Positions 2,441 to 43,033 of a DNA stretch of 64,000 nucleotides are shown here, in pieces. Under the pieces are notes generated by a model. The model was not told the origin of the DNA and ran no database searches. It saw only the letters and a program-made list of their open reading frames with translations. The stretch comes from a virus (taxonomy: Duplodnaviria > Caudoviricetes). Within the stretch, counting starts at the first letter, position 1; every line of letters begins with the position of its first letter. Where the stretch lies: IMG/VR virus record IMGVR_UViG_3300008107_006173; one strand, written 5' to 3'. The position numbers and the translations under genes are program-made.

Positions 2441-2743
2441 TTACCAGGAAATGTTCCAAGTAATAGTATCCTCGGTTGTAGTATTAGTTAGAATACTAAC
2501 ACCATAACCTAGACCAGTAAAGTAATCCTTTACATAGTTAACTTGATCTAATTTTGTTGCATCATTGGTAACACCATTATACACATCAGTCATTGTGGTG
2601 TTACTGTTAACATTAGCATACAATACACCGGCATCAATATTTGCTAGTACTGCGGCTTCAATACTGCGAATCTCACTATGTATAATGCTGTTGTTGCGAG
2701 TATCGCGTCGTGCTGTTGTAGCATTGACAAATATGTTAGCCAT
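2441..2743 (-). CDS. Hypothetical, probably virion protein
   Basis: 100-aa ORF coupled to upstream gene by a TAATG overlap. Confidence 0.6.
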   Translation of the reverse strand: MANIFVNATTARRDTRNNSIIHSEIRSIEAAVLANIDAGVLYANVNSNTTMTDVYNGVTNDATKLDQVNYVKDYFTGLGYGVSILTNTTTEDTITWNISW

Positions 2744-3075
2744 TATAGATCCGCCTTAATGTCTTTCATTGCTTGATTGCCTGCAAGTTTTGAAACATCA
2801 ACTGCTTGTTCAGCGTCTTTGTTTAAGTCTGCAGGTAGTTCGTTTTTTGGTATAATCTTATCTTTATCTACGCTGCTAGCAAAGCCACTCTGGTCTACTG
2901 CTTGAATAAGCTCATCGGTAGATGTAACATAGCCCTGCCGTGCTAGTAATGATTTAAACTTTTCAGTTTTAATTTCTTTAATACCCTTAGACATTGCTCG
3001 TGTGAGAATATCCTGAACAGCAACGATCAGTTCGCCGTAATAACTCTCAGTTAAAACAATATCACGAATTAGCAT
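2743..3075 (-). CDS. Hypothetical protein with capsid-targeting-like leader
   Basis: Starts MLIRDIVLTE-S; coupled to neighbouring genes. Confidence 0.65.
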   Translation of the reverse strand: MLIRDIVLTESYYGELIVAVQDILTRAMSKGIKEIKTEKFKSLLARQGYVTSTDELIQAVDQSGFASSVDKDKIIPKNELPADLNKDAEQAVDVSKLAGNQAMKDIKADL

Positions 3076-4391
3076 TAAATTGCTGCTCTACCTAGTGGTT
3101 CTTCTTCTGGACCAGCGGCTGCTGGTTCATTGACATCAACAGCAGGTTCTTCAGCATCAACTGGTTCTTCTTCTGGCTCAGCTAATCCGCCTGTGTCACC
3201 AACGGCACCAGCTACCTCGCCTCCAGTTAATTGTGCAACTGCATCATCTAAGCCTGCCTTAGTTGCTTTTGCATTTTCTAACTGTGCCGTCAACACACCT
3301 GATACTGTATCACTGAATGCCTGTGCTGTGCTTGCGCCCATTTCACTACGCATTTGATCTGTAATAGCTGGAAGTTCTTCGTTGATCATGCGCCCGATAC
3401 GCTCTACTTGATCTTGAATATCGTCAGCCATAGCACGAACTGCCATTACAACTTCAGCTTGCTCAACGTCAACTTCTTCGTTTAGAATATCGTCAACGAT
3501 GTCGCTTAGTAGGCTTTCAGTTTTCTTATCCTTCTTGCTACCAAATCGTGCCATTGCACGTCTAATGTCATCTTCACCAACTGATGAGAGATCGTATTCT
3601 TTACCATTGAAACTAAATTTATGTTTCTTTGCAGCAATAGCTTGATCTCTGGCTGTATTAAATGCATTTTGCTCTGCAATTTTACGACCAAAGTATTGAA
3701 TGCCTGATGTAATAGCTGCTTCGTCTAGGCCGTTTAGGAATCCAACAACAGCATCTCGGCTCTTGCCAGCAACCTTAGCAAATTCTTCTAGCTTAGATTC
3801 AATTACATCATAGCTGGTCATGCCTTCTAGCTTAATACCAATTTCTTCAGCTAGAGCTTTTAGCAGCTTCTCGTCAAGATCGGTCTTAGCAGGGACATTT
3901 TCTTGAACTTCTTCTACTGCTTCATACTTCATAGTGCCGCATTCGTCCATGTAGCTCTTAGCGGCTGTGATTACGATTGGCATAACATGATCATCATCAT
4001 ATGCAAAACGGGTGTCCATTCTGTAGCGGTTCATGCACTCGCCAACAGCTTCGTCCATTGTGTAACCACTGTCCATTAGCTTACGAACAGTTGATTCCAG
4101 CATTTCTTTCATAGCCATGTAAGCTGGGCTTTCAGCATACATGCCTTCGTTGATCATTGTTTCAACTACATCTTTGATGCCTAAAAACTTAGCATAGTCT
4201 GGCTCAAGATGAAACATCTTGTTTGTGCCACGAAGTTTAATAATTGCCTTCTCAGCTGACTCTAGTACTTTTTCTAGCTTTTCCTTTCTAGGGAAGCCCT
4301 TTGAAATGGATATGCCAAACTGCTCCTTAAGAACAGAATTAATTTTCTTAATTTTTCTGTTAGGAGTTTCTCTAAAATCTTGTAAAAACAT
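3075..4391 (-). CDS. Acidic coiled-coil head/core-like protein
   Basis: 438 aa, late box at 4423-4430, leader MFLQDFRE, several internal [ILV]xE sites, acidic tail. Confidence 0.65.
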   Translation of the reverse strand: MFLQDFRETPNRKIKKINSVLKEQFGISISKGFPRKEKLEKVLESAEKAIIKLRGTNKMFHLEPDYAKFLGIKDVVETMINEGMYAESPAYMAMKEMLESTVRKLMDSGYTMDEAVGECMNRYRMDTRFAYDDDHVMPIVITAAKSYMDECGTMKYEAVEEVQENVPAKTDLDEKLLKALAEEIGIKLEGMTSYDVIESKLEEFAKVAGKSRDAVVGFLNGLDEAAITSGIQYFGRKIAEQNAFNTARDQAIAAKKHKFSFNGKEYDLSSVGEDDIRRAMARFGSKKDKKTESLLSDIVDDILNEEVDVEQAEVVMAVRAMADDIQDQVERIGRMINEELPAITDQMRSEMGASTAQAFSDTVSGVLTAQLENAKATKAGLDDAVAQLTGGEVAGAVGDTGGLAEPEEEPVDAEEPAVDVNEPAAAGPEEEPLGRAAI

Positions 4392-4452
4392 AATATTAAT
4401 CCCTGCTATTGGTTATTACACTTATTTATCAGAAAACGCAGGAATTTTTATC

Positions 4453-40617: not shown

Positions 40618-40656
40618 ATCTTTATTTAGCGACTAAAACAAACAGTTTTACTGATA

Positions 40657-42339
40657 TTATGATAACCGCTGTGCTAGCTTATCTTTAATAGCATTAATTA
40701 ATGCTGTTTTGTCAGTGGTATATTTAAGATCTAGTGGCTTTGGTCCAGGCACCATAGGGATAGCAACTTCAGCATCGTCACAACCGCATGGTTCTTCAGC
40801 CGGTGCTTCAGGAGCATGTGGTGCAAGAGCTACGGCAACATCTTTCATACTGGGCTCTTGCATTGCGCCGTCGCCATTGTAATTAACACCTGCTAACTTC
40901 AATATGCGATGCAATTCTTCCATATCCTTAGCATTGGCGCTTACTGTTACGCTAGAATCACCAATACGCTTAGTTTGATTAAAACTAATATTTGTATCTT
41001 CTTGCGGGCCTACTGCGCCAGGCATTGTCTCTGGACCCGGTGAATAATAGTTTTCGGGAAGAATAGATGATTTAGTGACCGTTGTTTTAAATACAGCAGG
41101 ATCTACTCCAACTCGTTTTGCAGCAACTTTGTGTGCATGGGCTGTATTTTGTGCTTTGACATGAACTGCCCCAGCATCAACTGATTTGCCAGCATGTTGT
41201 TTAGGGAATTCAACTTTCCACATACTGTATTCTTCATTAACATTATCTTCTGATACTATACGAGCACTTTTTGTTGAAGGTTGATCGCGATAATGATTAA
41301 GTGCTTTATATGCATTTAGTGGATGTACTGGTACACGCTTTGTGTGACCTAATAGACTGACAATTTCAATATATTGCTTACTCTTGCCAGAATCCTCACC
41401 AACTTTATCTGGTGCAGGTAATGCTTCAACATCGCCTACGATGCTTTCATAATCATCCATGCTTAATGCACCATTCTTTGACAATTCAATCATACGCTCT
41501 GCTGCATTGTGCAGATCCATATCTTCTTGTGCATCTTCACGGGCGTATTCCATCATACGAAGTAATAGAGGAACATCTAATGTTACTGTATCAACTTCAT
41601 CATTTTCGCTGTCGGCATCAGTTGGATCTTCATCGCTATCACCTAATGCGTCTTGCGCCATAGTTCCTGCTACATGGCCAACGCCGCCAGCTACACTACG
41701 AGTAACTGCACTTGCGCCGCTGCCAACCACTGCTCGACCAACAGCAGCGCCAATGGCTGGTAAAATTTCATCAAGCTGTTCTGCGCTTTCCATGCGGTCA
41801 TAATGACCTGCTTCTAAATCTTGAATAACTTGCTTGGTCCAAATACTTACATCGCTTGAACCAATTTCTTCTAAACCATCACTGCCGGCAAAATCTGCCA
41901 CATCATTAATAGCAGCCATTACCTTAACTGGACCGTACTTGCCAAGTAGGTCTGTGTGCTGCATCATAATGCGGCGAGTAACTGCGCTAGAAACTGCGTC
42001 AATGCTGTCTTGGTCTTCGGTAACATTCTCAACAGCCTTAACTAACTTTACCATTGCTAAAAACTTTGTTCTTAGTGCAGGATCAGCAAAAATCTTTTCT
42101 AACGCACCAGCAAACGGTGCCAAAGATTGTAATAATGAAGGATTTAGAGCTTTACCTTTTTCTGCTTGATCAATTGCTTGAGCAAATTTTGCATTTGGTT
42201 TTCCGCCTAATGCTCTCGATACAGCGGCTGCACCAGCTCTAGTTTTTGGATCTAGTGGTGCATTTTTTGTTTGTGCAGCTGGAGTGGCAGCTGGAGGCGC
42301 ATTAGTTGTTGCAGCGTTTTGGAATTCTGAAAACTTCAT
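40657..42339 (-). CDS. Multi-module head protein with capsid-targeting-like leader
   Basis: RBS GAAGGA before MKFSEFQ (start 42339); modules joined at VTE-D, LDE-I, VGE-D, VNE-E, LPE-N. Confidence 0.7.
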   Translation of the reverse strand: MKFSEFQNAATTNAPPAATPAAQTKNAPLDPKTRAGAAAVSRALGGKPNAKFAQAIDQAEKGKALNPSLLQSLAPFAGALEKIFADPALRTKFLAMVKLVKAVENVTEDQDSIDAVSSAVTRRIMMQHTDLLGKYGPVKVMAAINDVADFAGSDGLEEIGSSDVSIWTKQVIQDLEAGHYDRMESAEQLDEILPAIGAAVGRAVVGSGASAVTRSVAGGVGHVAGTMAQDALGDSDEDPTDADSENDEVDTVTLDVPLLLRMMEYAREDAQEDMDLHNAAERMIELSKNGALSMDDYESIVGDVEALPAPDKVGEDSGKSKQYIEIVSLLGHTKRVPVHPLNAYKALNHYRDQPSTKSARIVSEDNVNEEYSMWKVEFPKQHAGKSVDAGAVHVKAQNTAHAHKVAAKRVGVDPAVFKTTVTKSSILPENYYSPGPETMPGAVGPQEDTNISFNQTKRIGDSSVTVSANAKDMEELHRILKLAGVNYNGDGAMQEPSMKDVAVALAPHAPEAPAEEPCGCDDAEVAIPMVPGPKPLDLKYTTDKTALINAIKDKLAQRLS

Positions 42340-42340
42340 C

Positions 42341-43033
42341 TTAGTTCCTTCTAGCACTCTGACTAATCACATCAACTTCTTTGTTCTCAATTCCCTTGCC
42401 CATATTGGCAGTATTATGAATTGTATCCCAAAGTGGCTTTAGATCCTCTCCCATCAATTCATCCTTGTTTGGATAATTGCGGAAATAATCTGCGCCCTTT
42501 TCTGCTTTAATCTTTGCTAGCTCATCTAAAAACTTTTTGTTAAATTCTTCACCAAAGAAAGGACCGTCTTTGTAGAGGTCTGGATTCTGCATTCCATAAT
42601 GTTCTTGATCTTCGTTAGCAAGTACACTTTCCTCTTGCTTTGGTGCGCGGTCTTTATTAAATTCTGTACGCTCTTCAGCATTTTCACTTTCTAATCTACG
42701 AGGATCTTTTACACCATAAACAAGAACACGCTCATGTGGTAAGCCTAAATTAACTGCTAACCATACTTCTAAAATTCTTTCATTAACAGGATACTTGAGA
42801 ACTACATCTGTTGCACAAACTTCTGAAACAAACTTAACACCTTTAGCACGAACAAATTCCATTGGATTTTCTTCGATTGGTCTGCGCTTCCAAGCAGCAG
42901 CACTTACAAGGCCGTATTTCTGTAGTGCATTTTCAAGTTGAGTCATTTGCTCGGCGCCGCAGTTAGCAGCGAACTTAACTCTATATGCGTATTCTTTTTT
43001 GAAGCTTTCAGCGATGAATTCTTTTAGTTGCAT
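42341..43033 (-). CDS. Late head-associated protein
   Basis: Starts MQLKEFIAE-S; late box at 43056-43063. Confidence 0.7.
   Translation of the reverse strand: MQLKEFIAESFKKEYAYRVKFAANCGAEQMTQLENALQKYGLVSAAAWKRRPIEENPMEFVRAKGVKFVSEVCATDVVLKYPVNERILEVWLAVNLGLPHERVLVYGVKDPRRLESENAEERTEFNKDRAPKQEESVLANEDQEHYGMQNPDLYKDGPFFGEEFNKKFLDELAKIKAEKGADYFRNYPNKDELMGEDLKPLWDTIHNTANMGKGIENKEVDVISQSARRN

Follow-up and report, generated by a model that had tools for sequence, protein, structure and literature searches.

Candidate T4-type capsid-targeting leaders on a large, partly enzymatic set of late proteins in a jumbo phage related to PA5oct

Why should a superoxide dismutase (SOD)-like protein, an ADP-ribosyltransferase, a kinase-nucleotidase protein and several proteins without a recognizable family share one short N-terminal pattern? 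The question is raised by a 64,000-nt stretch of viral DNA (IMG/VR record IMGVR_UViG_3300008107_006173; hereafter the window), which holds nearly all of its genes on the minus strand and from which 76 proteins were scored. The original prediction was that 13 of these proteins begin with a leader resembling the capsid-targeting sequence (CTS) of phage T4. All 13 N-termini are found on the minus strand at the starts predicted, with three start corrections: the gene that begins at 6135 opens with GTG; in the gene that begins at 19091, a second ATG at 19088 is probably the true start and is preferred because relatives read T-MRLHE; and 42339 is an internal ATG of an open reading frame (ORF) that could open at GTG 42357, with a GAAGGA-like ribosome site lying just 5' of 42339. 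Every test run here favours the interpretation offered, and the answer that we consider probable, judging from the sequences compared, is that the leaders are T4-type capsid-targeting propeptides, cleaved by a protease, on a large and partly enzymatic set of proteins.

To count the leaders, we used a regular expression that requires ^M-x-[FILVM]-x(1-2)-[DE]-[FILV] and then [ILVF]-x-E within 25 residues. It matches 11 of the 76 window proteins, every one of them among the 13 predicted, against 1.6 expected from the frequency of the pattern at internal positions (binomial p 6e-7; 5 of 396 internal Met positions match). The two candidates that fail the expression, with starts at 14194 and 16835, have variant leaders that are kept in relatives and in which L-x-E falls at residue 15 and [IL]-x-E at residue 12, respectively. 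None of the remaining 63 window genes matches, which bears out the predicted absence of the pattern from replication genes, and in relatives a single helicase out of 74 and none of 52 primases has the pattern. Leaderless genes, for example, a sulfotransferase-like gene (6340-6963), occupy the same operon as tagged genes, so the tag appears to be selective. The codons of the leaders vary from gene to gene, which points to selection at the peptide level rather than recent duplication of DNA. Because the motif was set after the data had been seen, the p value is optimistic, and independent evidence weighs more.

One such line of evidence is the resemblance to T4, in which the gp21 prohead protease cleaves a CTS from IPI, IPII, IPIII, and Alt (Mullaney and Black 1996; PMC9026906, PMC5694885). 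Read from the T4 genome (NC_000866), the leaders are MKTYQEFIAE on IPII and IPIII (as the original prediction had quoted for IPIII), MKTFKEF...ITE on IPI, MAKINELLRE on gp24, MLKEQLIAE on gp22, MNEPQLLIE on gp21, and MELITE on Alt. MQLKEFIAE, MKLNDFLIE, and (V)KINDIIVE from the window align with these, sharing a hydrophobic residue at P7, an acid at P5, a hydrophobic residue at P4, [ILV] at P3, and Glu at P1; the first of them, the leader of gene 42341-43033, matches the IPII/IPIII leader and is almost the T4 sequence. In the T4 CTS, residues 4 and 7 serve targeting and residues 8 and 10 serve processing (PMC9026906); their equivalents in the window leaders are the conserved hydrophobic P7/P4 and P3/P1. 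For the short starts MKIVE, MKISE, and MKFSE, there is a precedent in the six-residue leader of T4 Alt, which is cut at ITE-6 (PMC5694885). The likeness to the T4 CTS lies in a short propeptide-like segment (5-22 residues) with hydrophobic residues three apart and an [ILV]-x-E end, and it extends to a gp21-family protease (in relatives), an ADP-ribosyltransferase among the cargo (compare Alt), late expression, and putative sites on scaffold and capsid proteins.

By sequence comparison, the window is from an uncultured jumbo myophage related to Pseudomonas phage PA5oct. Its large terminase (39037-40617) is 57% identical to the terminase of that jumbo phage and 45-51% identical to those of Sinorhizobium phage Phosso, Vibrio phage 2.275.O, Atu_ph07, and RaK2-like phages, and synteny with PA5oct runs through tail sheath, tail tube, head closure, terminase, UvsX, and primase plus helicase, then a virion-protein block; megablast of two 10-12-kb window stretches against GenBank phages found no match at the DNA level. 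A closer relative is a 104 kb IMG/VR contig, G001, which is collinear with window positions 8691-64000 at 80-90% DNA identity and extends 47 kb past the right end of the window, reaching the head module. An IMG/VR scan using gene 3075-4391 returned three loci only. Between the window and G001, the cargo proteins encoded at 8693-11575, 18111-19088, and 40657-42339 are 56-68% identical, compared with 95-99% for core replication and structural proteins, a divergence that fits fast-evolving, host-facing proteins.

If the leaders function as a unit, what is kept and what changes in relatives? Leader conservation was examined in 80 metagenomic relatives (DUF6267 protein 68-96% identical). In the homologues of nine candidates, the leader pattern is kept and the residues directly after it change; in the DUF6267 and SOD proteins, the variable stretch after the leader changes in length as well. 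An unbiased census covered 1323 ORFs called in 83 relative loci; the 49 families with four or more members, each scored for the leader, gave a bimodal result: 12 families are 75-100% tagged, 35 are at 0-10%, and two are intermediate, one of them being SOD, whose variant leaders escape the regular expression. Eight of the tagged families are missing from the window, so the cargo set differs among relatives; a Pfam search of these eight and two further families gave no matches. The family-weighted consensus is M-[KLR]-[IF]-[N..]-[ED]-[ILV]-[IVL]-x-E, which reduces to MK-I-N-E/D-I-I-x-E and matches the T4 leaders. As to the enrichment in late over non-late genes that had been proposed as a check, the motif is confined to late virion-module genes and is all-or-none by family in relatives.

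Leaders of this kind reach beyond the jumbo phages. In the T4-like marine phages HTVC008M and Melnitz, CTS-like leaders are found on the DUF6267 proteins (MYNDLLVE-DKNTHLEH; (L)INFSKYITE), on the HTVC008M kinase (MIPFILKE-GLYDPGIF), which is a homologue of the kinase protein of gene 8693-11575, and on a cytidylyltransferase (MKKFSEIIE-ARG); the DUF6267 protein of Syn1 is without a leader. The gene order of helicase, an unknown gene, and DUF6267 extends to T4-like marine phages, with the kinase next in HTVC008M and the cytidylyltransferase in both HTVC008M and Melnitz.

The tagged genes had also been described as lying downstream of late boxes, which in T4 read TATAAATA. That sequence has 0 occurrences in the window (7 expected), and GATAAATA has 12 (4.2 expected), every one of them just 5' of a gene; on these counts, the late-promoter-like box here is GATAAATA, not TATAAATA. 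On the minus strand, the box at 19376-19383 heads an operon from 19359 to 16074, in which gene 18111-19088 is reached via a 94-aa virion-protein gene (19075-19359); the box at 15571-15578 heads a long operon from 15549 to ~4453 with six tagged genes; the box at 4423-4430 lies 5' of genes 3075-4391 and 2743-3075; and the box at 43056-43063 lies 5' of genes 42341-43033 and 40657-42339. A further occurrence is at 16043, and GATAAATA also precedes the tail tube gene and the virion-protein gene at 37747; the tail sheath and terminase genes have the variant boxes GCATAAATA and GCTAAATA. The description therefore holds at the level of operons but not gene by gene, since a box stands directly 5' only of the starts at 4391 and 43033. 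From this arrangement, the tagged genes appear to be expressed late, with the head genes.

A gene for a gp21-type protease (Peptidase_S77) is present both in G001 (E 4e-28) and in PA5oct (gp331; E 7e-25). In G001, it stands between the portal gene and the gene of a scaffold protein that itself starts MAVTFNDLLE, and the major capsid protein, encoded next after the scaffold, contains ..RYLSE-AATA; PA5oct has the same arrangement of portal, protease, scaffold, and capsid genes. Another PA5oct gene, gp212 (NC_071039 180349-181020), is annotated as 'head maturation protease'; its N-terminus reads like ClpP protease, and it shares a region of ~25 kb with ClpX-, ClpS-, and ClpA-like genes, the gp21-type protease of this phage being gp331.

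For PA5oct, there is also evidence from virions: its RefSeq record flags the proteins detected on virions by electrospray ionization tandem mass spectrometry (ESI-MS/MS), of which the PA5oct paper gives 93. The flagged proteins include gp246, gp247, gp333, gp104 (leader MKILEFNLTE), gp105 (leader (V)RLNEINLIE), gp135, gp279, gp281, gp282, and the SOD-like gp223, and with them the homologues or positional counterparts of six candidates (genes 2743-3075, 3075-4391, 6001-6135, SOD, 40657-42339, and 42341-43033). The core motif is found on 19 annotated PA5oct starts, and nine of these are flagged; the figure for the whole genome is 93 of 445 genes (Fisher, odds ratio 3.7, p 0.008). Where a well-formed site falls at residues 8-11, six of eight starts are flagged.

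The motif that ends the leaders also recurs within proteins. At the C-terminus of the ADP-ribosyltransferase is a basic, Cys-containing module of ~55 residues (window 8067-8230, minus strand), reading NFADG...YHWCANMKGGKK, which is common to unrelated cores (ADP-ribosyltransferase, ParB-like, NUDIX, and DUF6934) at 80-95% identity; the proteins with ParB-like, NUDIX, or DUF6934 cores plus this module have N-termini of the form MRA[RHQS]EF[IV]xE. The residue before the module is Glu in 63 of 63 distinct contexts, P3 is V, L, I, or M in 53 of the 63, and one protein consists of the leader MFIREITE with the module directly attached. A search of the other window proteins with a hidden Markov model of the module found it only in 8067-8696. 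A second module, AWSKKYK..KGFSQKAHC in the protein encoded at 11576-14194, follows [LIV]-x-E in 12 of 12 contexts (mostly orthologues), and in one protein (P0221) it comes directly after the leader MRAHEFISE. The hydrophobic-x-Glu that ends a leader and the one at an internal junction thus hold the same place before the same module, as expected if one protease cuts both. This pattern supports reading the 960-aa and 872-aa proteins of the window as polyproteins, and the NFADG module could be set free as a DNA-binding peptide or could act as a second element for packaging.

Which proteins, then, carry the leaders? All are encoded on the minus strand. Gene 2743-3075 encodes a candidate cargo protein of 110 aa (leader MLIRDIVLTE) with no family in Pfam or PHROG searches; its positional counterpart in PA5oct, the ESI-MS/MS-flagged structural protein gp246, starts VKIKDILVE, and no sequence match was found between the two. 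The candidate cargo protein of gene 3075-4391 (438 aa; leader MFLQDFRE) falls in PHROG 14154 'virion structural protein' and has a PA5oct homologue, gp247, that starts MFLKDVKITE and is mass-spectrometry positive. Gene 6001-6135, with its GTG start, encodes a small basic peptide of 44 aa with the leader (V)KINDIIVE; its relative in locus L007 reads VKIREIINE, and its PA5oct counterpart, gp333, which adjoins the portal gene, starts MKINDIITE and is likewise mass-spectrometry positive.

The Fe/Mn SOD-like protein (7534-8070; 178 aa; leader MKLNDFLIE; Pfam Sod_Fe_C 3e-25, Sod_Fe_N 6e-9) allows the leader to be set against known structures. Solved SODs begin at residues 13-17 of this protein, and its residue 17 corresponds to residue 5 of solved Fe-SODs; by this offset, ~12 N-terminal residues are an add-on. 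Relatives keep M[KR][LF]x..E leaders before a linker of variable length, and the mass-spectrometry-positive gp223 of PA5oct reads ..YISIAE-AAS. The SOD of Vibrio phage 2.275.O is leaderless and lies among replication genes, which suggests that the tag was gained along with a move into the virion module.

Next to the SOD-like gene is that of an ART-PolyVal ADP-ribosyltransferase (8067-8696; 209 aa; Pfam PF18760 1e-11), which has the short leader MKIVE and carries its C-terminal basic Cys module after PVEE; most of its homologues begin MKI[VAT]E[VI]. Gene 8693-11575 encodes the 960-aa multidomain protein (leader MRFIDLQE), in which Pfam and PHROGs place a P-loop kinase (Zeta_toxin/AAA_33), an NT5C-like nucleotidase, and two DUF6934 domains. 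Its relatives keep MRF[IL]DL[QE]E-GPNDPGIF (tagged 6/7 in the census), and PA5oct gp135 (leader MHLFELFDQIE) matches its DUF6934 region. The 872-aa multi-module protein encoded at 11576-14194, with its basic Cys-rich mini-modules, has the leader MKFENIRTLENFLLE and a weak DUF5872 match in Pfam; relatives keep MKFxD[IV][RK]T..L.E-YG (tagged 15/20). A nucleotidyltransferase-domain protein of 238 aa (14184-14900; Pfam NTP_transf_2 2.7e-4; PHROG 36119 1e-46) starts with the short MKISE, and 85 of its 99 homologues (42-98% identity) begin M-x-hydrophobic-x-[DE]-hydrophobic. Gene 16074-16835 encodes a candidate cargo protein of 253 aa (leader MEFLLLDKVLTE) with no family in Pfam or PHROG searches; more than 50 relatives (39-93% identity) keep M[DE][FL]x[LF][ILV]..[EV][IL][SCTA]E, then [AS]RL[YF]R.

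The DUF6267 protein (16835-18109; 424 aa; Pfam PF19782 2e-100) has a longer leader of 22-25 residues, MRFIEIS...LVAE. Across 22 aligned homologues, M1 never changes, F3, E5, and S7 are conserved at 90% or more, and residues 8-25 differ in both sequence and length; [ILF]-x-E stands in every case directly ahead of the conserved core, and from K26 on the aligned proteins do not vary. In the AlphaFold2 model, residues 1-31 have a predicted local distance difference test (pLDDT) score <50 (disordered), with an overall pLDDT of 69. The protein has an invariant KWDG motif and had been labelled ligase-like. A phmmer search for it against PDB gave no match, Foldseek against PDB gave none below E 0.03, and hhalign against T4 Rnl2 and the gp30 DNA ligase was negative; in a wide VIA-align search, helical bundles dominate and the Trl1 LIG domain appears only at Z 6.5, rank 40, a weak match. 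Of the enzyme labels first given to the cargo, Pfam bears out those of SOD, ART-PolyVal, kinase plus nucleotidase, and nucleotidyltransferase; the ligase-like label, which draws on KWDG and a weak fold match, is unproven, as is the nuclease-like one. PA5oct gp256 was considered as a DUF6267 member but has neither a Pfam nor a tblastn match, and is therefore treated as a positional counterpart only.

Three further candidate cargo proteins complete the set. The protein of ~325 aa encoded at 18111-19088 has the leader MRLHEIENIDE, and relatives down to 28% identity keep MR[LI]xE[ILFV] (tagged 34/44 in the census). That encoded at 40657-42339 (560 aa) has the short leader MKFSE; its G001 homologue has a MKLFEF start and is divergent afterwards, and its positional counterpart in PA5oct, gp281, is mass-spectrometry positive. 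The third (42341-43033; 230 aa), which bears the MQLKEFIAE leader, falls in PHROG 14802 'virion structural protein', and its homologue in PA5oct, gp282, carries a mass-spectrometry flag; kinship with the T4 gp2 DNA-end protector was considered and rejected after a negative BLASTP search.

How might the leaders work? We propose that the consensus M-[KRL]-[IFL]-x-[DE]-[ILFV]-[ILV]-x-E, together with the shorter M-K-hydrophobic-x-E and longer variants, would act as targeting propeptides. The tagged proteins would be made late from GATAAATA promoters; the hydrophobic residues at P7 and P4 of the tag would bind the prohead scaffolding core, so that the proteins are incorporated before DNA enters; and the gp21-family serine protease would then cut after the Glu of [ILV]-x-E, removing the tag and separating the modules of the large proteins. 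The mature proteins would remain with the DNA in the head, the predicted cargo being the SOD-like protein, ART-PolyVal, the kinase-nucleotidase, the nucleotidyltransferase, the DUF6267 protein, small basic Cys-rich peptides, and several proteins without a family. The phage thus probably carries a kit of enzymes in its capsid. Ejection of the cargo into the host, like that of T4 Alt and the internal proteins, is most likely the last step, held with lower confidence than targeting and cleavage.

Several points weigh against this account. The leader motif is post hoc and degenerate, and the three short leaders are weak signals alone and could belong to the fold of their proteins. The Peptidase_S77 gene is not in the 64-kb window; in the collinear G001, it lies ~19 kb past the window's right end, and since the window ends that far short of the locus, the protease is presumed for the window's own genome. 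In PA5oct, 10 of the 19 motif-bearing starts, including gp256 and gp103, have no mass-spectrometry flag; the flagged list includes contaminants, evidently non-virion enzymes such as ribonucleotide reductase and thymidylate synthase, so that a flag is not proof of packaging; and the leader of gp282 is unlike that of its window homologue, 42341-43033. Scaffold binding, cleavage, location in the head, and injection are steps that we infer.

The most serious alternative, which we judge unlikely, accepts that the tagged proteins reach the prohead core but has them act in the particle or in assembly rather than being delivered as effectors: they might be accessory scaffold or peptides that condense DNA, and the SOD might shield the packaged genome. 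T4 gp22, gp67, and gp68 are assembly proteins with similar N-termini (PMC5694885), the scaffold protein here itself bears the motif, and the small basic Cys modules resemble DNA binders; for those modules and for SOD, this alternative may apply. However, the ART-PolyVal, kinase, nucleotidase, and nucleotidyltransferase domains require cytoplasmic substrates, T4 Alt is a precedent for an injected ADP-ribosyltransferase (PMC5512222), and the cargo proteins of genes 8693-11575, 18111-19088, and 40657-42339 diverge more from G001 than core genes do, as host-facing proteins would.

Far less probable is that the common N-terminus, instead of being a capsid signal, marks the proteins for recognition by something else, for example, a radical-SAM (S-adenosylmethionine) modifier or other enzyme, a chaperone, or a secretion route. 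The window does have a radical-SAM gene (50572-51612, minus strand), which lies between a dNMP (deoxynucleoside monophosphate)-kinase-like gene and a head-tail adaptor gene. It is missing at the syntenic site in G001, which keeps the leaders, and the leaders are degenerate and T4-like, not a fixed 16-mer, and end in the gp21 cleavage motif, so a radical-SAM tag is unlikely; moreover, the internal module junctions and the scaffold protein bear the same motif. Nor, in all probability, is the pattern a by-product of expression (A/T-rich 5' codons with Lys at position 2) or a generic amphipathic first helix with no sorting role: genes expressed at a high level often begin with A/T-rich codons and have Lys or Arg at position 2, and three of the leaders are just five residues long, but the late genes with the highest expression (sheath, tube, major capsid protein, and portal) are without the pattern, codon usage varies among leaders, families are either tagged or untagged, and the motif recurs within proteins at module junctions.

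Taken as targeting propeptides, how do the leaders relate to known systems? Compared with the four tagged proteins of T4, there are at least 13 tagged genes in this one 64-kb window and at least eight further tagged families in relatives; the cargo, known here from sequence alone, extends to an SOD-like protein and to large multidomain enzymes 872-960 aa long, the late box reads GATAAATA, and the tags are found in PA5oct-like jumbo phages plus marine T4-like phages. The cleavage motif of the phiKZ group of jumbo phages is S/A/G-x-E. In this group, phiKZ, 201phi2-1, and SPN3US have processed head, inner-body, and ejection proteins and an S80 protease (PMC5694885, PMC10052503), and the likeness is that these phages, too, pack many head proteins, some of them enzymes, which are cut after Glu by a distant gp21 relative and ejected with the DNA. 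Large processed cargo sets are thus already known in phiKZ-like phages, where the propeptides are mostly >100 residues long (PMC5694885). In contrast, the window leaders are 5-25 residues with a hydrophobic P3, and the protease of the relatives is Peptidase_S77 rather than of family S80, so the window does not belong to the phiKZ-type class.

Polyvalent proteins are multidomain enzyme fusions whose genes lie among those for late functions or packaging, and their delivery with the DNA has been proposed (Iyer et al. 2017, PMC5512222). The window shares their domains, with PF18760 (1e-11) in the protein of 8067-8696 and a Zeta-toxin-type kinase, NT5C, and DUF6934 in that of 8693-11575; it differs in that most of the enzymes are encoded by separate genes, each tagged, rather than by one giant fusion, and an N-terminal targeting leader or protease-delimited modules are not described in that study (PMC5512222). 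T-even phages have variable internal-protein genes with CTS-like starts (cited in PMC9026906), and here, too, variable and unrelated proteins have a common CTS-like start; the set described here, however, includes enzymes and spans jumbo and marine phages, and the DNA of its leaders is unconserved between genes. A review suggests that the CTS lets T4-like phages load diverse proteins (PMC9026906). The T4 CTS itself is textbook knowledge; searching the literature on CTS-like leaders in the PA5oct/RaK2 group, cyanophages, and jumbo phages, we found only the work on T4 and on phiKZ/SPN3US, and no paper that reports T4-type tags on enzymes such as SOD or anywhere in the PA5oct/RaK2 group.

More tentatively, and with somewhat less than even confidence, the portable N-terminal tag and the hydrophobic-x-Glu junctions could together make up a modular cargo system, delimited by the head protease, that is used by a widespread clade of jumbo phages from aquatic habitats and also by T4-like pelagiphages and relatives of methylophages. 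Any enzyme or small basic Cys module could then be exchanged into the head, and the cargo would differ among relatives and be predictable from sequence (SOD, ADP-ribosyltransferases, kinase-phosphatases, nucleotidyltransferases, NUDIX and ParB-like proteins, and many unknowns) and would act as counter-defence or repair enzymes in the first minute of infection. Should the tags function as they do in T4, sequence would directly reveal the injected proteome of a large group of jumbo phages that is abundant in the environment, dozens of unknown proteins would be nominated as first-minute effectors of host takeover or anti-defence, enzymes such as the SOD-like protein would be shown to travel within capsids, and there would be a natural handle for putting foreign proteins into the heads of jumbo phages in laboratory strains. 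The idea is directly testable in PA5oct, which is cultured, is a phage-therapy candidate, has virion proteomics, and bears the same tags.

Two other features of the window may be recorded. Genes 28147-29250 and 29250-29807 (region 28141-29811) are without a counterpart in G001 and are found in other relatives; their N-termini read like those of an S-adenosylmethionine synthetase and a phosphoribosyltransferase. Farther right on the minus strand are genes for a membrane CHASE2-adenylate/guanylate cyclase (60232-62265) and an adjoining secreted curlin-repeat protein (62267-63661), and in G001 (44419-47608) this pair is followed by more genes for signal-peptide and lipoprotein-like proteins.

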